Source: Chlamydiota bacterium (GTDB taxonomy: Bacteria; Auribacterota; JACPWU01). From it: DNA of 32,000 nt. The stretch covers positions 1-32,000 of the forward strand of contig JACPWU010000011.1 in NCBI GenBank assembly GCA_016196885.1, given 5' to 3'. The notes under the pieces were generated by a model. It was not told where the DNA came from and did not search any database. It was given only the letters and a program-made list of their open reading frames with translations. Made by a program: the position numbers and the translations under genes. Of the stretch, positions 2,573 through 30,898 are shown piece after piece; within the stretch, counting starts at the first letter, position 1, and each line of letters begins with the position of its first letter.

Positions 2573-2836
2573 ATGAGAGCGCATCCCAAAGCCCGTAGAG
2601 ACGTCGTATGCAAAGCTCTTCAAGAAGAGGTCATGCTTTATGATCCTCTCAAAGAAGATGTTCACGTTTTAAACAATACCTCGCATTTCATTTGGAATCT
2701 CTTAGACGGCAAGCACACGCCAGAGGATATCGAAAAAAAAATCCAATCCTCTTTTTCAGACACAGTCCCTTTTAAAATTTTTTCAGACATTCAGGAAATC
2801 TTAAAAGTCTTTGAAGAGAAAGGACTTTTAGAGTGA
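2573..2836 (+). CDS. PqqD-family peptide chaperone (RiPP recognition element-like)
   Basis: 87-aa ORF with the typical PqqD/RRE stretch VMLYDPLKEDVHVLNNTSHFIWNLLDGKHTPEDI. Its stop overlaps the next start (GTGA at 2833-2836). Confidence 0.8.
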   Translation: MRAHPKARRDVVCKALQEEVMLYDPLKEDVHVLNNTSHFIWNLLDGKHTPEDIEKKIQSSFSDTVPFKIFSDIQEILKVFEEKGLLE

Positions 2837-3987
2837 GCTCCCTCGCAGAAGAAAAACTGGAAACCCGCCCACAAGTTCTGCGCGAAAAAAGCTATCGTTT
2901 TTTTGATATAGAAATAGTCTTAAAAACAGACCCTCCTGATATCCTTGAGAATTTTCATCGAATTTATCACCGGTTTCAAATCACAGAAACACATGAGGCC
3001 CATGACATTTATATCCTGAGATCTAAAATAGATGACAATCCATTTATATTAACAGCGGGTGAAGGCTCTCGAATCCTCACCCAGCCCTTCACGCCTCAGT
3101 TTTACCTCTCTTTCTTCTCGTTTGTCCTTTCAAAAGTCAAAAGTCATTTTCTCGTCCACGCGGCTGTCGTGAGTTTAAGAAACGAGGCTGTCCTGATTGT
3201 CGGACACTCTGGCTTTGGAAAAACGACACTGGCGGTAGAACTTCTTAAAAGAGGTATGTCTTTTTTATCTGATGAACTGGCTCCTCTTCACCGAACACAT
3301 CATCACGTAGAACCCTTCCCACGAAGCATAGGCTTGAGAAACATTTGCTTACACGATCTCTCATCCGAAAAATCTTTTCGAAATCCTAACAGCAAGGGTG
3401 AAATCAAATGGATGATGGACATTGAAGAACTCAAAATGAGCCGCCTGGGCGAGACCTCTCGCCCCGGAAAAATTGTTTTCCTGGAACCTCAATTTGAAAA
3501 TGAACCCATTCCAGAACACCTTCAAATTTTTGAGATCCACTTTACATCCCTCACAAAAACTTTCTGCAATGCCATCGCTGAAATATCCCAGATCCATAAA
3601 GTAGAAAGAATAGAGGATCGGCTCTTTCCCATGCTGCGCCTCACGATCACAAAAAACACATCCCCCCTTGCTCAAATACAAAAAGGGGCTCAAGATCACA
3701 AAATAGGTCTTGTGTCTGTGATCGAAGGAAAAACGCAAAAACCGGATTTTAAAAGATCCCCCCTCTTGAAACGCATCAATCCTTTTGATGGCATTCGCAA
3801 ACTTAGCCAAATGACACTCAACGCCCACGAAGGTTCTTCCTTAATGAAACTGCTCGGGAATCGCCCTGCAAAATTGCTCTGTGAACTTGCCGACATCGTG
3901 GGCCAAGCCCAATTTTACGAATTGACGATCGGAGATCTAGGAGAGATGACAAGAAGGGTGGAAGGAATCATGAGAAATGAGGGTTAA
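2833..3987 (+). CDS. HPr kinase-related (HprK C-domain-like) serine kinase
   Basis: 384-aa ORF with a GTG start. The core FLVHAAVVSLRNEAVLIVGHSGFGKTTLAVELLKRGMSFLSDELAPL matches the HPr-kinase C-domain pattern (HA..V, Walker A GxSGxGKT/S, downstream acidic SDE/DD). Confidence 0.8.
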   Translation: MSSLAEEKLETRPQVLREKSYRFFDIEIVLKTDPPDILENFHRIYHRFQITETHEAHDIYILRSKIDDNPFILTAGEGSRILTQPFTPQFYLSFFSFVLSKVKSHFLVHAAVVSLRNEAVLIVGHSGFGKTTLAVELLKRGMSFLSDELAPLHRTHHHVEPFPRSIGLRNICLHDLSSEKSFRNPNSKGEIKWMMDIEELKMSRLGETSRPGKIVFLEPQFENEPIPEHLQIFEIHFTSLTKTFCNAIAEISQIHKVERIEDRLFPMLRLTITKNTSPLAQIQKGAQDHKIGLVSVIEGKTQKPDFKRSPLLKRINPFDGIRKLSQMTLNAHEGSSLMKLLGNRPAKLLCELADIVGQAQFYELTIGDLGEMTRRVEGIMRNEG

Positions 3988-4009
3988 CCCAAATTAAACA
4001 AAGAAATCC

Positions 4010-4564
4010 ATGCACACAGACATCATCAAAGAAAATTTGATTCAAATTTGGAAGGATTTGGAGAAAACCCAATGGATCTCTTGCTCTGGATCCAGCATGA
4101 AACCCCTCATCACAGACCGAACAGAATTGCTGCTACAATTCTGTAAGCCCGACAAAATTCACTTGGGACACATCATCGCCTTTCGAAATGAAAATGAGAT
4201 GATTGTTCATCGCATCTTGGGATTTTCAAAGAAGGCAAACAAGCTTTATTTTATTGAAAAGGGTGACAACAATCCCCTTCCAAACTTGATTCCCCAAGAA
4301 AGCCTGATCGGCCGCATTGTGGCCCTTAAAAAGGGGAGTCGCATCCTTTCACTGCGAAACCCCCTGTGGAGAATTTTGGATTTTCTTTATGTGATTTTTA
4401 ATGCCTCTTTCATCATTTTCTTCAAAATCTTTTACAAAATTAAAATTTTAGCCTTCGGAAAGGAAAAAAAGGCCTGGACCCAAAATATCTATCTTCTCCT
4501 TAAAAGTTTTTTCCTTTTCATTCCTGAAAATATATCCCGTCTGATCAAAAGGTTTTCTAAATGA
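4010..4564 (+). CDS. S26-family signal-peptidase-like serine protease (SipW/Sec11 type), membrane anchored
   Basis: 184-aa ORF with SGSSMKP (nucleophile Ser box), IVHRILG (His box) and EKGDNNP (box E). C-terminal hydrophobic segment WRILDFLYVIFNASFIIFFKIF. Confidence 0.7.
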   Translation: MHTDIIKENLIQIWKDLEKTQWISCSGSSMKPLITDRTELLLQFCKPDKIHLGHIIAFRNENEMIVHRILGFSKKANKLYFIEKGDNNPLPNLIPQESLIGRIVALKKGSRILSLRNPLWRILDFLYVIFNASFIIFFKIFYKIKILAFGKEKKAWTQNIYLLLKSFFLFIPENISRLIKRFSK

Positions 4565-5877
4565 ATACACTCGAGACATTCAAAAAAGCTGAAAATCTTC
4601 TTGAGACAAAAGAGTCTGCCTTCTCAAATGAGCACAGATTCATGCTATCTCTTTTGTCTGGCAATCCTTCCGAAACGGAACAAATTGAATGGCTCATCCA
4701 CAAGAGGCTCTCCTGGCTTTTCTTCACCCAGGAAGCCCTGCGAAATAACGTCGGGCCGCTCCTCTGGCAAGAAATTTCTCATTCCTCTATTCAAGACCTC
4801 ATCCCGGAGAAGGCAAAAGAAATTCTCAAATCAGATCATGAAAGAACGGCTGTTTCAAACTTACTCCTTTTTCAAGAAACTCGAAAAGTCGTTCAAACCC
4901 TTCAAGAAAATTCCATTCCTGTGCTCCTCCTGAAAGGGGCTTTTCTCGCCCCTGAAGTCTATCGAAACATCGCCCTTCGTCCTTGTGCGGATACCGATAT
5001 TTTGATTCGCTGGGAAGATTTTTCTCGCATTAAAAAAACGCTTCCACGACTGGGGTTTTCCCTCTCCCCCCGACTCATGAGTGAATCTTTTTACCACCGC
5101 CACCATTTTCATATTCCCTTCTTAAAGCTTCTTAAACTTACAACCGTTCATATAGAGGTTCATTGGAATTTGATGGACAAATATCTCCTTCAAGGACTCC
5201 AGATTTCGGAGGTTTGGAGGCGGGCGAGACCTTTTACCTTTGAGGGTCTTCCTGCCTTGACTCTTTCACCTGAAGACGAATTGATTTATCTTGCATTACA
5301 CATTTTAAAACATGGCTTCATGAACCGCTGGATTGCAGCCGATCAGAGCCGATTTGCTTTTCTTTTCCAAGCACTTTCTGAAAATAAACTCATTTGGTTC
5401 ATGGATCTCAAAAAAATTCTAGAATCTTCAACCGTCATAGACTGGAATTTGCTGATTGAAAGAACTCAAAGGTGGAATGTCTCGGAATCCATCCGCCCCA
5501 TTTTCAAACTGTTGTCCCTTTTATTTCCGAGTGTTCCCTTCCCTAAATCTCTTTTAAGAATCGGCCAACCGTTTCGTGTTTCGAGAGAGCGCGAAATCTT
5601 TTTCAAAATGGTCACATCAAAATCAAATTCTCATTGGATTCAAAAACACCTTCTCAGCATGAATGGAAATCTTCAATTCCGTCCGATTCGTGTCTTGGAT
5701 ATTTTAGAATACTTTTTTTTGCCACAGAAAACCCTCATCCAATGCTACCGACTCCGCAGTAAATTTCAAATTTTCTTTTATTACCCCTTTCACTTTTTAA
5801 AGACACTTTGTGACAGTATTTCTGGCCTTGTCGAATGGGCCTTTTTCAGGCTGACACAGCGATGGAGAAAACCATGA
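4561..5877 (+). CDS. Uncharacterised nucleotidyltransferase family protein (PF14907/NTP_transf_5-like)
   Basis: 438-aa ORF. VLLLKGAFLAPEVYRNIALRPCADTDILIRWEDF ... HIEVHWNL matches the family pattern (KG..L....Y......R...D.DlLv ... lDlHw.l). ATGA overlap with the peptidase gene stop. Confidence 0.75.
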   Translation: MNTLETFKKAENLLETKESAFSNEHRFMLSLLSGNPSETEQIEWLIHKRLSWLFFTQEALRNNVGPLLWQEISHSSIQDLIPEKAKEILKSDHERTAVSNLLLFQETRKVVQTLQENSIPVLLLKGAFLAPEVYRNIALRPCADTDILIRWEDFSRIKKTLPRLGFSLSPRLMSESFYHRHHFHIPFLKLLKLTTVHIEVHWNLMDKYLLQGLQISEVWRRARPFTFEGLPALTLSPEDELIYLALHILKHGFMNRWIAADQSRFAFLFQALSENKLIWFMDLKKILESSTVIDWNLLIERTQRWNVSESIRPIFKLLSLLFPSVPFPKSLLRIGQPFRVSREREIFFKMVTSKSNSHWIQKHLLSMNGNLQFRPIRVLDILEYFFLPQKTLIQCYRLRSKFQIFFYYPFHFLKTLCDSISGLVEWAFFRLTQRWRKP

Positions 5878-6425
5878 GCGAGCTTGAAAAGCTTTCAAAC
5901 CTCGAGATTTTGGCCAATTCCTTTTTCTCACAGGGGAAATTTAAAGAGGCCCTCGAACTCTATGAAGAAATGGTCCGTCTCAACCCCGCGGATCTTCACA
6001 CCCAGTCAAAAATCGCAACGCTTTACATCTTGACCGGAAACCCTCAAAAGGCAGCCGCTCTCTTCGAGGAAATTCTTCAAAAGAATCCAGACCATTGCGA
6101 CGCCCAAAACAATCTGGCGACCCTTTATTTGTCAAAGGGCTGTTTTGAAGAAGCTATTTCTCTGTTTCAAAAATTCCTCCGTCAAAATCCAGATCAAGAA
6201 GAGATTCGCATGAACCTCGCCTTGGCGCACTTCTTAAAAGGAGATCTTGAGGAAGCAAAAAAGGAAGTGGATAAGATTCTTCAAAAAGATCTTGAGCACT
6301 CTCGCGCAAAAAGGCTCTTGAGGGAAATTCAAGAGAAAGAGGAGAAGCGGGAAGGAGCACTGGATGAATTTGTTAAAACACTTGCTCGTAAAAATAACTC
6401 CCCCTTCCCCTCAAGATTTTTCTAG
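5874..6425 (+). CDS. TPR-repeat protein
   Basis: Repeated 34-aa TPR-like units (FFSQGKFKEALELYEEMVRLNP, ...AAALFEEILQKNP, ...AISLFQKFLRQNP). Start chosen at the ATG at 5874 because it forms an ATGA overlap with the upstream stop. The longest ORF starts at 5835. Confidence 0.8.
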   Translation: MSELEKLSNLEILANSFFSQGKFKEALELYEEMVRLNPADLHTQSKIATLYILTGNPQKAAALFEEILQKNPDHCDAQNNLATLYLSKGCFEEAISLFQKFLRQNPDQEEIRMNLALAHFLKGDLEEAKKEVDKILQKDLEHSRAKRLLREIQEKEEKREGALDEFVKTLARKNNSPFPSRFF

Positions 6426-6442
6426 TCCTTTAGCTAGCCCGC

Positions 6443-6575
6443 ATTTCATCTGAAAATAGTCTTTACTCTTTCTTATACAATGACTCATGATGACTTGTAG
6501 TCGCCCGATTTATCGGGCAATGCCCAATGCCCCAATGTCATAGACCGCCCCATAAATGGGGCGACTACAAGGGTG
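6443..6575. repeat. ~130-bp repeat unit (copy 1) containing REPIN-like core 6496-6569
   Basis: Near-identical to 17335-17468 (4 mismatches over the ~126 clearly alignable nt, by eye). Core is TGTAGTC-GCCCGATTTATCGGGC-28 nt-GCCCCATAAATGGGGC-GACTACA. Confidence 0.9.
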
Positions 6576-8026: not shown

Positions 8027-8096
8027 TGTAGTCGCCCGATTTATCGGGCAATCCATGCAAGGGGTACACGGCAGCCCCATAAATGGGGCGACTACA
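8027..8096. repeat. REPIN-like element, copy 2
   Basis: TGTAGTCGCCCGATTTATCGGGC - 24-nt divergent spacer - GCCCCATAAATGGGGCGACTACA. Arms are identical to copies 1 and 4; the spacer is unrelated. Confidence 0.9.
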
Positions 8097-8135
8097 AAAT
8101 GAGCTTCACTTTCATAGCAATCAATGTCCCATGAT

Positions 8136-8923: not shown

Positions 8924-8944
8924 AACACTCCTGACCCTCCTTGT

Positions 8945-9027
8945 TTTAACCTCAATACCGAAGTTGAGCATGAGAACTCAAGATCTTGCTTCGAATTCCA
9001 TGATTCAACTTCGGTATTGAGGTTAAA
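8945..9027. mobile_element. MITE-like element, short (83-bp) copy
   Basis: Perfect 23-bp terminal inverted repeats TTTAACCTCAATACCGAAGTTGA (8945-8967) and TCAACTTCGGTATTGAGGTTAAA (9005-9027). Both ends (about 32 nt each) match the ends of 23354-23575 in inverted orientation. Confidence 0.8.
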
Positions 9028-9099
9028 GGAATATATCGAATTCTACGCCCTTCAAGGAAAGGATGTCAAAAAAAATATTCAGGAAAATTGAATACGTAA

Positions 9100-14821: not shown

Positions 14822-14826
14822 GATAA

Positions 14827-14910
14827 AAGTTGTAAGTTGTAAGTTGTAAGTTATAAGTTTGAAAGGAGTCCATTTTTTACTTACAACTTAAAACTTATAA
14901 CTTACAACTT
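14827..14910 (-). repeat. Heptamer-periodic intercistronic hairpin (pnp|ftsK), terminator-like
   Basis: Left arm is (TTGTAAG)x3 + TTATAAG (14830-14857). Right arm is ACTTACA ACTTAAA ACTTATA ACTTACA (14879-14906). The 19-nt loop contains AAAGGAG. It abuts the pnp stop, and in mRNA sense it is followed by UUUUAUC-AUG of ftsK. Confidence 0.85.
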
Positions 14911-17042
14911 TATTTGTATGATCCCTCATCATCAGAAGGCAGGGCTAGAGCAGACGAGCCGGCTTCTGCAAGAACCGCCTTGCGGCTTAGGTTGATGCGT
15001 CCCCGTTCATCAATCTCAATCACCTTGACCATCACGGTATCTCCCGTTTTCAAAACGTCCTCCACCTTCTTGACCCGATGTTCCGCCAATTGAGAAATAT
15101 GAACCAAGCCTTCTTTCCCGGGAAGCACTTCTACAAAGGCGCCAAATTCCATGATATTTTTCACAGTCCCTTTATAGATTTTTCCCACCTCGACTTCAGC
15201 CGTCAATTCTTTAATCTTTTGAATCGCAGCGTCCACCCTCTGACTCTTGGGAGAGGCAATGGCCACAGAACCATCATCTTCAATGTTAATCTCGGTTTGA
15301 GTTTCCTCAATAATCTTCTTGATGGTTTTTCCACCCGGCCCGATCAAAAGACCTATCTTTTCCGGATTGATTTTAATCGTCACAATTCTCGGGGCATGTT
15401 CAGAAATTTTTTCACGGGGATGAGCTATCGCCTTCTCCATCATGTTCAAGACGTGAAGGCGGGCCACACGGGCCTCTTCCAAAGCCTTTTTCAAAACAGG
15501 CTCTTCCAACCCTTCAATCTTCAAATCCATTTGAAAACCTGTAATGCCCTGAGAGGTTCCCGCCACCTTAAAATCCATATCCCCCAAATGGTCCTCAGAA
15601 CCCAAAATATCCGTGAGCACCACCGTCTTGTCGGACTCTTGAATGAGTCCCATCGCCACACCCGCCACAGGGGCCTTTACCGGAACCCCTGCATCCATAA
15701 GCGCCAAAGCACCGCCGCAAACCGTCGCCATGGAACTGGAGCCATTGGACTCCAAAATGTCGGAAACGAGGCGAATGGTATAAGGAAAAGCTTCCTGACT
15801 TGGAAGAATGGCTAAAAGCGATCTCTCTGCCAACGCCCCATGCCCGATTTCTCTTCGGCCCGGACCTCGGGAAGGCTTGACTTCTCCCACACTAAAGGCC
15901 GGAAAATTATAATGCAACATGAACGATTTAGAAGTCTCTCCCTCAAAACCCTCGGTTCTCTGCTCATCATCCACGGTCCCTAACGTTGCAACAGCCAAGG
16001 CCTGGGTCTCTCCGCGCGTAAAAAGGGCCGAGCCATGCGTGCGAGGTAAAATTCCCACCTCACAGGTGATGGGTCGAACCTCTTTCGTCGAACGGCCATC
16101 GTTGCGAATCCCCTTCTCCACAATCATGCGGCGCACCTTCATTTTTTCAATTTGGGCAAAGGCCTCCTTAAACATTAAATCTGAGACTTCAGGAAATTGA
16201 GCGGACAAAATTTCTTTCACCTCTCGGTACAATTGACCCAAATTTTCTTCCCTCTTTCTTTTCTCGGGAACCACTAAAATGTGATCTATCTTTCCATCTA
16301 ACGCCTTTTTCATCGCATCAAAAAACAAGGGCTCCACGGTAAAGACGGGAAAATCTTTTTTGGTTTTTCCACATTTCTTCCTTAAATCTTCCTGAAGACG
16401 CGTCAATTTCTTAATCTCTTCGTGCCCCACCCGCAAGGCCTCGACCATCTGATTTTCAGAAATCTCATGTGCAGAACCTTCCACCATCAAAATAGCCTTT
16501 TGGGTTCCTGCCACCACCAAATCCAACTCGCTTTCCTTTAATTCAGCATACGTAGGATTGATGATCCATTTCCCATCCTTCAAACCGACTCGAACAGCAC
16601 CGACCGGTCCGGAAAAGGGAATTTCAGAAACATGAAGCGCGGCCGAAGCTCCAATAATGGATAAAATATCCGGATCATTGTGCTCATCAGCAGAAATGAC
16701 CTGGGATGTGATTTGGACTTCATTGAAGAATCCTTCGGGAAAAAGGGGTCTCAAGGGACGATCGGTGAGACGGGCTGTCAAAATTTCTTTCTCGGTTTGA
16801 CGTCCCTCTCTTTTGATATATCCCCCCGGAAATCTTCCGGCCGCAGATGTTTTTTCCCGATAATCTACGGTCAAAGGAAAAAAATCTGTCCCTTCCCTTA
16901 CCCCCGAACTCACCACGGCTGCGACGAGAACAATGGTCTCGCCCATCTGAACTGTGACAGCCCCATGGGCTTGCTTGGCCATGCGGCCTGTTTCAACCGA
17001 AATCATTTCTTTTCCAATTTGAACCTCTAATCGTTGTGTCAT
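14910..17042 (-). CDS. pnp: Polyribonucleotide nucleotidyltransferase (PNPase)
   Basis: 710-aa ORF with two RNase PH domains, KH (GPGGKTIKKIIEETQ) and S1 (GKIYKGTVKNIMEFGAFVEVLPGKEGLVHISQL). Confidence 0.97.
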   Translation of the reverse strand: MTQRLEVQIGKEMISVETGRMAKQAHGAVTVQMGETIVLVAAVVSSGVREGTDFFPLTVDYREKTSAAGRFPGGYIKREGRQTEKEILTARLTDRPLRPLFPEGFFNEVQITSQVISADEHNDPDILSIIGASAALHVSEIPFSGPVGAVRVGLKDGKWIINPTYAELKESELDLVVAGTQKAILMVEGSAHEISENQMVEALRVGHEEIKKLTRLQEDLRKKCGKTKKDFPVFTVEPLFFDAMKKALDGKIDHILVVPEKRKREENLGQLYREVKEILSAQFPEVSDLMFKEAFAQIEKMKVRRMIVEKGIRNDGRSTKEVRPITCEVGILPRTHGSALFTRGETQALAVATLGTVDDEQRTEGFEGETSKSFMLHYNFPAFSVGEVKPSRGPGRREIGHGALAERSLLAILPSQEAFPYTIRLVSDILESNGSSSMATVCGGALALMDAGVPVKAPVAGVAMGLIQESDKTVVLTDILGSEDHLGDMDFKVAGTSQGITGFQMDLKIEGLEEPVLKKALEEARVARLHVLNMMEKAIAHPREKISEHAPRIVTIKINPEKIGLLIGPGGKTIKKIIEETQTEINIEDDGSVAIASPKSQRVDAAIQKIKELTAEVEVGKIYKGTVKNIMEFGAFVEVLPGKEGLVHISQLAEHRVKKVEDVLKTGDTVMVKVIEIDERGRINLSRKAVLAEAGSSALALPSDDEGSYK

Positions 17043-17334: not shown

Positions 17335-17468
17335 TATTTCACCTGAAAATAGTCTTTAGTCATTCTTATACAATGACTCATGATAGCTTGTAGTCGCCCG
17401 ATTTATCGGGCAATGCCCAATGCCCCAATGTCATAGACCGCCCCATAAATGGGGCGACTACAAGGGTG
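17335..17468. repeat. ~130-bp repeat unit (copy 4) containing REPIN-like core 17389-17462
   Basis: Near-identical to 6443-6575, including the 28-nt spacer ...AATGCCCAATGCCCCAATGTCATAGACC. It occupies the ribF|rpsO spacer. Confidence 0.9.
17346..17373 (-). promoter_or_regulatory. Promoter-like motif inside the repeat unit, facing rpsO
   Basis: On the minus strand: TTGTAT (17373-17368), 16-nt spacer, TATTTT (17351-17346), about 28 nt upstream of the rpsO ATG. The same motif is intact in repeat copy 1 (6453-6480). Confidence 0.35.
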
Positions 17469-23339: not shown

Positions 23340-23353
23340 ACGAACATCCTCTC

Positions 23354-23575
23354 TTAAACCTCAATACCGAAGTTGAATCATGGAATTCGACGCATCCCAC
23401 AGGGACTATAACAGCTTGAGATCTTGGCCATCTTGACCTTCAGAAATGCTCGACAGGCATTTTTTTATGCATGCCTGCGCTTTCTTCAGGCCAATCCCAC
23501 AGGGACTGCAAAGGCCTGTCTGGCTCAAGCTCTTGCGTCTCGGTCCTCATGCTCAACTTCGATATTGAGGTTAAA
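23354..23575. mobile_element. MITE-like element, long (222-bp) copy
   Basis: Termini TTAAACCTCAATACCGAAGTTGA (23354-23376) and TCAACTTCGATATTGAGGTTAAA (23553-23575). Internal 14-nt direct repeat ATCCCACAGGGACT (23394-23407 and 23494-23507). Internal hairpin CAGGCAT-10 nt-ATGCCTG. Confidence 0.8.
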
Positions 23576-23669
23576 ACAAAACCGCTGCCGCCTAGAGGTG
23601 CTCACCTCGGCGCGAAGCGAGAGCCTCGCAAAAAACATAAACGCTGACCCCTGTACGCTATTTTTCCAC

Positions 23670-27689: not shown

Positions 27690-28517
27690 TCATATCACCA
27701 TCCAAAAATACATGATCGGGCCCGTGACAAGCAAACTATCCATCAAGTCTAACACACCTCCCATTCCTGGCAAGAGACTTCCCGAATCTTTTCTCCCGGC
27801 ATCTCTCTTCAAGGCTGACTCCATCACATCTCCGACCTGAGAAAAAAATCCCAAGAGAGTTCCTAAGCACAAAACATCTTTCCACTCGAGAGGATAAAAA
27901 AAATGTCGCGCAAAAAAATAAAGAAGTGAAGCGATCAAAATGGCCCCTAAAACCCCTGCTAAAGCTCCCTCTAATGTCTTCTTTGGACTGATTTGAGGGA
28001 CCCACTTCCTCTTTCCTATCCAAGATCCGACGAGATATGCAAAAATATCCGTGGCCTTCGTCACCAAAATGAGAAAAAGCAAAAGCCAAGCCCCGTTTCC
28101 TTGAGGGAAATAGCGGATTTTGACCAGAAAACTCGACAACCCAGAAACATAAAAAATGCCCAGCAGCGTGGTTGAAATACAAGCAATCACCGCGACACGT
28201 CCAAAGCGAGATAAGACAACCCCAAAGGTTCCCAAGATGATTAAAAAAGAAGTGAGGCCTTCCAAATGGAACTGGCTGTCCAGACGAGGAGCCAAGGCGC
28301 AAAGAAATTGGACAGAAAACAAAACAACCCCAGCAAAAATTCCAAAGAAAAGAAGAGGATGCAAAACCTTCTCATCCATCATCCGGTAAAACTCCCACTC
28401 TCCCAAAACAACCAAAATAAGACCGATCACAAGAAAAAGAGGCCAAGGGGCAAAGAAAACAATCCCCAGCATGGCTAAGATTAAAAAACAGGATGTGAAA
28501 AAACGTTGAGAGAACAT
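27690..28517 (-). CDS. cdsA: Phosphatidate cytidylyltransferase
   Basis: 275-aa polytopic ORF with C-terminal signature SALKRDAGRKDSGSLLPGMGGVLDLMDS. Confidence 0.9.
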   Translation of the reverse strand: MFSQRFFTSCFLILAMLGIVFFAPWPLFLVIGLILVVLGEWEFYRMMDEKVLHPLLFFGIFAGVVLFSVQFLCALAPRLDSQFHLEGLTSFLIILGTFGVVLSRFGRVAVIACISTTLLGIFYVSGLSSFLVKIRYFPQGNGAWLLLFLILVTKATDIFAYLVGSWIGKRKWVPQISPKKTLEGALAGVLGAILIASLLYFFARHFFYPLEWKDVLCLGTLLGFFSQVGDVMESALKRDAGRKDSGSLLPGMGGVLDLMDSLLVTGPIMYFWMVI

Positions 28518-28526
28518 ATAAAAAAT

Positions 28527-28621
28527 AGTTTTGAGTTTTTGGTTTTGAGTTTTTAGTTTTTAGTTTTTAGTTTTTAGTTTTTAGTTTTTAGTTTTTCACT
28601 CAAAACTAAGAACTCAAAACT
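28527..28621 (-). repeat. Heptamer tandem array inside a hairpin (uppS|cdsA)
   Basis: Ten in-phase heptamers at 28527-28596 (AGTTTTG AGTTTTT GGTTTTG, then AGTTTTT x7). The first 23 nt pair with CTCAAAACTAAGAACTCAAAACT (28599-28621, 21/23), leaving the pure repeat run as a ~49-nt loop. Confidence 0.85.
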
Positions 28622-29356: not shown

Positions 29357-29518
29357 CAGTCGTGGGTCGTGAGGGGTGAGTCGTGAGCAAGAGTGAAACA
29401 GTCGTAAATGGGTAGTCGTGAGTTTTGAAGATATTATTTTTTTACTCACCACTCACGACTCACCACTCACAACTGCTTTTAAGAAACTCACCACTCACGA
29501 CAGACGACTCACGACTAT
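29357..29518 (-). repeat. Largest heptamer-periodic hairpin (purA|uppS)
   Basis: Left: 9 in-phase heptamers from 29359 (GTCGTGG GTCGTGA GGGGTGA GTCGTGA ... GTCGTGA). Right: 11 in-phase heptamers from 29444 (ACTCACC ACTCACG ACTCACC ACTCACA ... ACTCACG). It fills the spacer from the purA stop to 9 nt before the uppS ATG. Confidence 0.85.

Positions 29519-30898
<1,380 letters not shown>

Follow-up and report, generated by a model that had tools for sequence, protein, structure and literature searches.

A probable linear polyphosphorylated peptide-type maturation cassette, divergent and from outside Bacillota, in a Chlamydiae-like metagenome-assembled genome

What might be made by an operon that encodes a peptide-binding domain, a kinase, a signal peptidase-like enzyme and a nucleotidyltransferase-fold protein, when no peptide to be modified is found beside it? 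The question is raised by a stretch of 32,000 nucleotides (hereafter the window; contig JACPWU010000011.1, positions 1 to 32,000, of GenBank assembly GCA_016196885.1, a Chlamydiae-like metagenome-assembled genome, or MAG), in which five same-strand, translationally coupled open reading frames (ORFs) occupy positions 2573-6425. A first-pass annotation, made from the letters alone, had read these as an operon of enzymes of the type that matures peptides made by ribosomes and modified after translation (RiPPs), distinct from lasso peptide clusters. We consider it probable that the operon is a divergent, out-of-phylum variant of the cassette producing "linear polyphosphorylated peptides" (LPPs), because the LppS, LppB and LppN families of that system are matched, kinase and peptidase are tightly associated across lineages, LppA-like ORFs occur in related cassettes and the catalytic residues are intact. 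The features of the operon, with coordinates re-read in the sequence and protein lengths in amino acids (aa), are as follows.

2470-2572, no strand: divergent intergenic region upstream of the operon, 103 bp
2573-2836, plus strand: RiPP recognition element (RRE) gene, 87 aa; PF05402; counterpart of LppB
2833-3987, plus strand: kinase gene, 384 aa, GTG start; P-loop kinase with the fold of HprK and phosphoenolpyruvate carboxykinase (PEPCK), "long" form; distant counterpart of LppK and PsmK
4010-4564, plus strand: peptidase gene, 184 aa; Sec11/SipW-type S26 enzyme with Ser/His; counterpart of LppS
4561-5877, plus strand: transferase gene, 438 aa; PF14907 nucleotidyltransferase fold; counterpart of LppN and PsmN
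5874-6425 (or from 5835), plus strand: tetratricopeptide repeat (TPR) gene, 183 aa from ATG 5874 or 196 aa from ATG 5835

The junctions previously described are all present when read directly in the sequence: GTGA at 2833-2836 (RRE/kinase), a 22-nt gap at 3988-4009 (kinase/peptidase), and ATGA at 4561-4564 (peptidase/transferase) and again at 5874-5877 (transferase/TPR). For the TPR gene, ATG 5874 is preferred to ATG 5835 as the start because it has a GGAGA 7 nt upstream. The operon promoter is presumably held in the 2470-2572 region, in which a promoter scan gave no plus-strand match; its sole small ORF is a 23-codon reverse-strand frame, and it leaves no room for a precursor gene.

The system that serves as reference was described by Popov et al. 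(2026; Nat Commun 17:6633, PMC13381572) from Paenibacillus alginolyticus, of the Bacillota, where LPPs are made by lppA-K-B-S-D-N. The cluster core comprises LppS, like signal peptidase I (SpI), the discrete RRE LppB, the HprK-like kinase LppK, an uncharacterised NTP transferase, LppN, and the MsbA-like LppD; the precursors are 35-200 aa long and share the motif YxxPxVLxHQxIxFETxxS, several phosphates are placed by LppK on core Ser3, and removal of the leader by LppS requires the RRE, unphosphorylated precursor being cut poorly (PMC13381572). LPPs were stated to be restricted to Bacillota (PMC13381572). From this core the window encodes an LppS-like peptidase with a discrete RRE, a long and divergent HprK-like kinase and a PF14907 transferase; Lpp sequences for comparison were taken from the supplement of the same paper (PMC13381572). 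The first-pass annotation had called the combined phosphorylation and cleavage "different, undescribed": its non-lasso reading was right, but the pathway has been in print since May 2026 under the name of LPP biosynthesis. Its proposal that a signal peptidase-like enzyme stands in for the lasso leader protease B2 agrees with what Popov et al. showed for LppS (PMC13381572).

The RRE protein matches PF05402 with 40.6 bits (cut-off 23.4) and reaches 17.8 bits on TIGR04353 (cut-off 35); proteins of this PqqD type are leader-peptide binders. A hidden Markov model (HMM) built from the cassette RREs matches LppB (E 1.7e-13). In the BLASTP alignment D72 of the window protein corresponds to LppB D70, while N34 corresponds to LppB N33 only by a reading of the pattern LN-x6-W, BLASTP pairing it with LppB N23; in LppB, N33 and D70 hold the Pro and Tyr of the leader (PMC13381572). 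Since a sequence search of the PDB returned only a weak match to TbiB1 and not the LppB entry 9X8Z, the equivalence of these residues is drawn from pairwise alignment and sequence pattern.

The kinase falls short of the curated family models, with 33.2 bits on PF07475 (0.1 under the cut-off of 33.3, over profile positions 6-58 of 171), 53.3 bits on TIGR04352 (cut-off 200) and 36 bits on TIGR00679, the HprK/P equivalog (cut-off 240). Its assignment to the HprK/PEPCK fold is nonetheless secure, because a 33-sequence profile of its family matches HprK/P crystal structures (E 8.5e-7), its motifs are conserved, and its AlphaFold (AF2) model (pLDDT 90.5, pTM 0.89) is matched by Foldseek to ATP-dependent PEPCK (TM about 0.45) and to HprK/P, two enzymes with one common fold. 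H109, G129-K130-T132 and S146-D147-E148 are invariant or nearly so in 33 homologues, as are the P-loop GxGKTT and the motif LSDELAP. LppK, of 261 aa, matches the long-kinase profile in the catalytic core only (23 bits). A profile search of 1.84 billion representatives gave 599 proteins at E <= 1e-30 and 25,198 at E <= 1e-3; among the best 150 matches most are near full length (288-422 aa) and a few are truncated. With at least 599 clusters at 50% identity, the long kinase constitutes a sizeable family rather than a rarity.

The peptidase just passes TIGR02228, the archaeal-type signal peptidase I model (52.7 bits, cut-off 51.85), and scores 19 bits on PF00717. Its GSSMKP, VHRI and KGDNN align with the catalytic motifs SM.P, HR and GDNN of human SEC11A (SEC11A structures, E 1e-4), and GxSMxP, HR and EKGD are invariant in all 11 cassette peptidases compared. 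Against LppS, BLASTP gives 26% identity over 111 aa (E 4e-9) and the cassette-peptidase HMM 64.5 bits. In SipW and Sec11 an N-terminal anchor puts the active site outside the membrane. A hydropathy scan detected no such anchor in any of the 11 enzymes: within the N-terminal 40 residues, hydropathy over 19 residues peaks at 0.15 in the window protein and nowhere in the set exceeds 0.53. LppS likewise has no N-terminal anchor. The window enzyme has a single strongly hydrophobic stretch, near residues 119-145, which probably tethers the peptidase of this clade to the membrane by its C-terminal part; five of the 11 aligned enzymes have no segment at the hydropathy threshold, and in locus L015 (6499-8385, minus strand) peptidase and PF14907 transferase are fused in a single 628-aa ORF. 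An active site on the cytoplasmic side is suggested by these three observations and, judged from hydropathy, is probable; they speak against "cleavage at the membrane" by a canonical anchored signal peptidase, as at first envisaged. The homologous peptidase of L003 weakly matches TIGR02754 (SodX), a cytoplasmic protease for maturation of nickel superoxide dismutase. With the RRE gene about 1.2 kb upstream in the same operon and the kinase gene between, the enzyme is by analogy a probable RRE-dependent leader peptidase.

In the published LPP survey, two proteins of Candidatus Brocadia (Planctomycetota) are listed as "signal peptidase I" (WP_070066131.1 and RZV58771.1; Supplementary Data 1 of PMC13381572, cluster 6 of the sequence similarity network), with context columns of 0, taken to mean that no RRE is linked. 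The Candidatus Brocadia SpI scores 100 bits over nearly its full length against the HMM of window-type peptidases; it is of the window type, and that survey may therefore have brushed past this branch unrecognised.

The transferase matches PF14907 with 170 bits (cut-off 31.2), and KG, LRPxxDxD (D144 and D146) and ExHW are kept in eight homologues. LppN belongs to the same family (91.6 bits), and is matched by the cassette transferase HMM with E 3e-23. The sole positive functional datum for this transferase family comes from PsmN, which adds a hexose to phosphoserine and is inactive as D134A/D136A (PMC6993621). By analogy the PF14907 enzyme probably elaborates a phosphate. The "nucleotidylation" at first proposed is unproven, the functional data of the family being hexose addition (PsmN) or no detectable activity (LppN). 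The fifth protein matches many TPR families. Its gene follows that of the transferase in all four Chlamydiae-like loci (window, L001, L014 and L140) and is absent from the other lineages; the three homologues range from at least 419 aa (running off its contig) to 445 aa, and the window protein is less than half as long. All five family assignments of the first-pass annotation (PqqD/RRE-like, HPr-kinase C-domain-like, S26 Ser/His of the SipW/Sec11 type, PF14907-type and TPR) are thereby upheld.

Related loci were collected by tracing kinase homologues to their contigs, the degenerate DNA pattern LSDELAP-x9-P[FY]P adding 120 metagenomic loci. They comprise "long-kinase" loci (kinase of 350-400 aa, above 300 bits on the family profile), in about 15 non-redundant lineages, and 115 "short-kinase" loci, in which a kinase of about 280 aa has RRE and PF14907 genes adjacent; the short kinases match the long-kinase profile mainly from position 1 or so to about 160-200, then in short pieces at about 300-360. 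The cassette thus occurs outside Bacillota, in some 15 metagenomic lineages. A peptidase accompanies the long kinase in 14 of these, adjacent in 12, at 2.6 kb with another gene between in L005 and at a distance of 3.3 kb in L136, L011 being the sole long-kinase lineage with none; the peptidase HMM matched none of the 115 short-kinase loci. PF14907 and RRE genes are found in every long-kinase locus on a long enough contig, except that L136 has no PF14907. The order of the genes differs from one lineage to the next, and this speaks for a functional link between them, not for an arrangement simply inherited. Within the Chlamydiae-like clade the full five-gene order is kept, with proteins 36-56% identical; the conserved synteny sought in a check of the first-pass annotation is present, for the four core genes elsewhere and for all five in this clade. 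In L136 (8133-15130) the long kinase and its partner, an S24/S26-like peptidase, have other RiPP-like surroundings, made up of a PqqD protein, a PqqD-radical SAM-SPASM enzyme and a C25 (gingipain-like) peptidase of 1079 aa.

LppA-like precursors are present in four related lineages. L005 and L015 carry homologous ORFs of 42 and 50 aa directly after the RRE gene (that of L015 at 6387-6539), reading YKRPEIKTYEAEELEEELGLT before the predicted cleavage site and LGSG after it; the leader pattern, with a slash at that site, is Y-x-x-P-x-[IM]-KTYEAxELEEELGLT/xGS, and the core of L005 has only about 10 residues. L013 and L137 carry homologous ORFs of 71-73 aa directly after the transferase gene (MKQYKKPGIKSLAPKDFRE, then YIGS). 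The spacing from Tyr to Phe is 13 in L013a, as in LppA, and one residue longer in the short-kinase consensus; L137 has Leu at the position of this Phe. If cut in the register of LppA, these peptides would have a conserved Ser at core position 3 (L005, L015 and the short-kinase consensus), 4 (L013a) or 2 (L137). A protein search with the L005/L015 precursor profile found three proteins.

Seventy of the 115 short-kinase loci encode a small ORF (median 72 aa) at a median of 43 bp from the RRE gene and, in 60 of 65 unique cases, on the kinase strand. It has the consensus TRRDFLKKAAYIAPVILTLAAAPSFASAGSG, after which comes a variable core with many Gly, Arg, Ser, Asp and Lys residues; none of these small proteins matched a curated family. 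Examples, from loci L016-L134, are the following.

L046, 95-307: short-kinase small ORF
L100, 822-989: short-kinase small ORF
L123, 6181-6333: short-kinase small ORF

The leader pattern RRDFLKKAAYxxPxILT..PSFA-xGS contains the RRE motif YxxPxI, with strong conservation of RR (92-95%), Y (89%), P (100%), T (95%) and the GS pair (95% and 93%). These leaders resemble signals for twin-arginine translocation (Tat), with an h-region of moderate hydrophobicity (mean 1.44), an AxA-like site and matches to TAT models that stay below threshold, whereas the long-kinase leaders are hydrophilic (hydropathy -0.5 to -1.75). Leaders are thus Tat-like in loci without the peptidase and hydrophilic in those with it, a contrast suggesting that the dedicated enzyme may replace the housekeeping signal peptidase.

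In the window, L001, L014 and L140, by contrast with these lineages, no credible precursor was found, either with the expression [YFW]xxPx[LIVMF] and nearby starts or, in six frames, with a leader HMM (built on 63 leader segments, of which nearly all belong to short-kinase loci) and with another made for the L013/L137 family. A 92-codon frame between the DUF1573 and RRE genes of L140 (3436-3711, plus strand; identical in L141), with a Cys-rich end after LKGG, was rejected as precursor evidence: it lacks a start codon (ATG, GTG or TTG), neither the window nor L001 conserves it, and chance alone often produces Cys-rich frames. The best reading is that the substrate is encoded elsewhere in this genome.

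On the LPP-type reading, which draws on analogy for every chemical step, a ribosomal precursor, not encoded beside the operon in this clade, would bear an N-terminal [Y/W]xxPx[V/I/L] leader bound by the 87-aa RRE, which would hand it to the P-loop kinase for phosphorylation of a Ser just past the leader (core Ser3, repeatedly, in the characterised system). The PF14907 enzyme would then probably decorate the phosphate group, much as PsmN does with a hexose, and the anchor-less Ser/His peptidase, its active site probably cytoplasmic and, in this clade, tethered to the membrane by a C-terminal hydrophobic tail, would take off the leader in an RRE-dependent manner.

Several genes recur around the related cassettes. 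A multi-pass membrane protein of GT-C type (700-820 aa, a weak match to PMT_2, with the motifs GGWDPGxYxNTG and RRYxP) lies beside the long-kinase cassette in seven lineages, and in L005 is the gene that separates kinase and peptidase.

L003, 7509-9602: GT-C-like gene, homologous
L005, 11125-13581: GT-C-like gene, homologous
L009, 6512-8797: GT-C-like gene, homologous
L013, 3008-4690: GT-C-like gene, homologous
L015, 8661-10871: GT-C-like gene, homologous
L036, 8582-10906: GT-C-like gene, homologous
L137, 6559-8895: GT-C-like gene, homologous

DUF362 occurs in four long-kinase lineages, L136 among them, and lies upstream of the kinase in L013, L036 and L137; other partners, varying by lineage, are a secreted beta-rich protein and a flippase-like gene (L036), and L040 is the sole related locus with an ABC pair, of ABC-2 type. 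Adjoining the cassette in the window, L001 and L140 is a divergent pair, 41-48% identical, that encodes a secreted DUF1573/OS_HP2-like protein and a UshA-like c-type cytochrome (245 bits on NF041198, cut-off 275); L014 does not have it.

Window, 164-1471 and 1432-2469, both minus strand: DUF1573 and cytochrome pair
L001, 6689-9132: DUF1573 and cytochrome pair
L140, 1167-3466: DUF1573 and cytochrome pair

Some observations weigh against an LPP-type assignment. An ABC exporter, or MsbA-like LppD, was not found within the window, and no LppA-like ORF with a motif of the type YxxPxVLxHQxIxFET/xxS lies in its cluster or in those of the three related Chlamydiae-like loci. The kinase exceeds LppK by about 120 residues and resembles it in the catalytic core only, and direct BLASTP of the RRE against LppB is weak (E 0.03). 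LppN itself showed no detectable activity, and deletion of lppN had no visible effect (PMC13381572). The topology proposed for the peptidase has hydropathy as its sole basis, and the related loci were annotated with HMMs built here from cassette proteins, from 3-8 sequences each (33 for the kinase). The absence calls for the window refer to ORFs of at least 100 aa scanned against Pfam, five short ORFs (longest 262 aa) having no confident match or being left unscanned. In that scan neither an Asn-synthetase-like cyclase (PF00733) nor a transglutaminase-like B2 (PF13471) was found either, in keeping with the first-pass annotation, which had reported cyclase, B2, ABC exporter and precursor all lacking. 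As the remaining genes are housekeeping ones (FtsK, PNPase, RibF, TruB, IF-2, NusA, a class II aminoacyl-tRNA synthetase, RseP, Dxr, CdsA, UppS, PurA and SerA), these absences are real within the window.

Four other explanations, taken here in descending order of weight, were set against the LPP-type reading. It is unlikely, to begin with the strongest of them, that the substrate is a larger secreted or membrane protein (the DUF1573 protein, the UshA-like cytochrome or an unlinked protein) and the S26 enzyme a dedicated signal peptidase, as SipW is for TasA. Such a substrate would account for the failure to find a small precursor in the four Chlamydiae-like loci, is in line with the divergent pair that adjoins three of them and with the C-terminal hydrophobic tail of this clade's peptidase, and would not be out of scale with LPP precursors, which reach 200 aa (PMC13381572). 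The peptidase, however, is without the N-terminal anchor by which SipW/Sec11 active sites come to lie outside, the DUF1573 proteins have unconserved N-termini with no [Y/W]xxP motif, the pair is missing from L014, and known PqqD-type RREs bind leader peptides; the adjacency of the pair may reflect either a functional link or inherited order. It is very improbable that the cassette is an orphan in decay, its enzymes remaining after precursor and exporter were lost and no product being made: the absence of both from the window and the shortened TPR gene would fit, yet the catalytic motifs are all intact, and four lineages at 36-56% identity retain an identical order of the five genes, again with no precursor alongside, which implies purifying selection.

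We give even less credence to the operon being the tailoring half of a split lasso cluster, whose cyclase, B2, precursor and exporter would lie past the contig end or elsewhere in the genome. Tailoring in lasso clusters does commonly involve RRE, HprK-like kinase and PF14907 enzymes (PMC8498205, PMC7533575), a linkage to lasso genes is seen for about one third of the SpI genes of Bacillota (PMC13381572), and the source contig stops some 160 bp past the left edge of the window, 2.5 kb upstream of the cassette. Neither cyclase nor B2 was found, however, in L001, L003, L005 and L137, each with about 10 kb of flank on both sides, so that the case the first-pass annotation had named as refuting its view, homologous operons always beside a lasso cyclase/B2 pair, did not occur. 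A survey of 126 neighbours (200-1000 aa, within 5 kb of related kinases) found UDP-glucose dehydrogenase (5), ABC_tran (4), radical SAM (4), methyltransferases (4) and GDP-mannose dehydratase (3) as recurrent families and neither Asn_synthase nor Transglut_core3 among them; the PP-loop motif SGGxDS, sought in all frames of all loci, appeared in just one unrelated 381-residue frame, and the core of L005 is too short for a lasso. The operon is in these respects one of non-lasso RiPP-type enzymes, as originally claimed. Least credible of all is a cell-envelope glycoconjugate pathway without any peptide, in which a sugar or lipid carrier would be the substrate of both the kinase and the nucleotidyltransferase-fold enzyme. 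It can draw on the GT-C-like protein of seven lineages, on the flippase-like gene of L036, on the two sugar-nucleotide enzymes near the trio (in five and three loci, respectively) and on the capsule loci in which LPP clusters sit (PMC13381572); it is countered by a PqqD-type peptide-binding domain in every sufficiently complete locus, by conserved leader-bearing small ORFs adjoining the cassettes and by a window with no glycosyltransferase.

The noncoding part of the window has features of its own. A 133-nt intergenic repeat, REP/MITE-like in appearance (that is, like repetitive extragenic palindromes or miniature inverted-repeat transposable elements), is found at 6443-6575 and 17336-17468 in copies 96% identical, built from inverted hairpins (TTGTAGTCGCCCGATTTATCGGGC); hairpin cores lie at 6495, 8026, 12362 and 17388, and inverted copies at 6539-6570, 8074-8106 and 17432-17463. 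One copy begins 18 nt past the TPR stop, at the 3' end of the operon. Other repeats of the window are inverted ones of 37-42 nt (14 kb apart, 95% complementary), a series of 14-nt units in tandem, a direct repeat of 42 nt in two copies and, between ftsK and pnp, a hairpin of 33 nt (8941-9028 versus 23353-23579; 28512-28602; 29444-29527; 14826-14911). A reading of the operon as a defence system was rejected, PADLOC giving no meaningful match.

Taken more broadly, and with somewhat more doubt than conviction, the comparative data can be viewed as traces of a wide and old RiPP superfamily of LPP-type chemistry having at least two undescribed branches, one with a long kinase and anchor-less peptidase, the other a trio without peptidase. 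In the first, lineages of PVC (Planctomycetes-Verrucomicrobia-Chlamydiae) type would keep the precursor unlinked and have a TPR partner, and others would be coupled to the GT-C-type membrane glycosyltransferase and DUF362. In the second, the RRE motif would lie inside a Tat-type signal peptide, RRxFLKKAAYxxPxILT...PSFA/xGS, and phosphorylation of the peptides might take place in the cytoplasm, with Tat export to follow and then cleavage by the housekeeping signal peptidase, a step that the peptidase of the first branch would replace. As of 2026 the LPP family was known from Bacillota only, and a divergent version in a Chlamydiae-like MAG and many uncultured lineages shows this enzyme quartet to be far more widespread than that. 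Its variants (long kinase, peptidase-transferase fusion, GT-C and DUF362 partners, TPR protein, unlinked precursors) are natural experiments on the function of PF14907 enzymes and on product export, and the sister trio with Tat-signal-like precursors would, if real, provide the first example of an export signal that is read by an RRE. The window itself offers an LPP-like cassette with its substrate not found nearby, and it is the comparative by-products that are of more interest to RiPP specialists.

How, then, does the operon stand to systems already known? With the type I signal peptidases of Sec11/SipW (S26B) kind its peptidase shares the Ser/His(/Asp) motifs and a marginal pass of TIGR02228; unlike them it lacks a signal anchor at its N-terminus and shares its operon with an RRE, and it is expected to cut a leader presented by that RRE rather than a Sec signal peptide. 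The HPr-rel-A system of TIGRFAMs, as it also emerges from the present survey, has an adjacent kinase (TIGR04352, HprK-related kinase A), PqqD-type protein (TIGR04353, PqqD family peptide chaperone) and PF14907 enzyme. The first-pass annotation had named it as related, and the same three genes do stand together in the window operon and as a trio in most of the 115 short-kinase loci; the window proteins, however, score far under the curated cut-offs (53.3 versus 200 and 17.8 versus 35), and the trio loci differ in their kinase of about 280 aa, their lack of a peptidase and their Tat-signal-like precursors. The lasso clusters of paeninodin and pseudomycoidin (PMC8498205, PMC6993621) have in common with the window the tailoring set of RRE, HprK-like kinase and PF14907-type enzyme and a [Y/W]xxPxL leader motif, whereas the window has neither the Asn-synthetase-like cyclase nor the transglutaminase-like B2, and the phosphosite of the related LPP system is near the core N-terminus rather than at a C-terminal Ser. 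The nearest relative is the LPP system itself, from which the window cassette departs in its host (a Chlamydiae-like MAG, LPPs being reported only from Bacillota), in a kinase of 384 versus 261 aa, alignable in the core only, and a transferase of 438 versus 341 aa, in the extra C-terminal hydrophobic tail of its peptidase and the added TPR gene, in the lack of an MsbA-like exporter or nearby precursor, and in its setting amid housekeeping genes rather than a capsule locus. The two have in common, on the other hand, a single operon for a SipW/Sec11-type peptidase without N-terminal anchor, a PqqD-type RRE, an HprK-like kinase and a PF14907 transferase, with neither cyclase nor B2, and the precursors of loci related to the window carry a YxxPx[V/I] leader and a Ser 2-4 residues past the predicted cleavage site.

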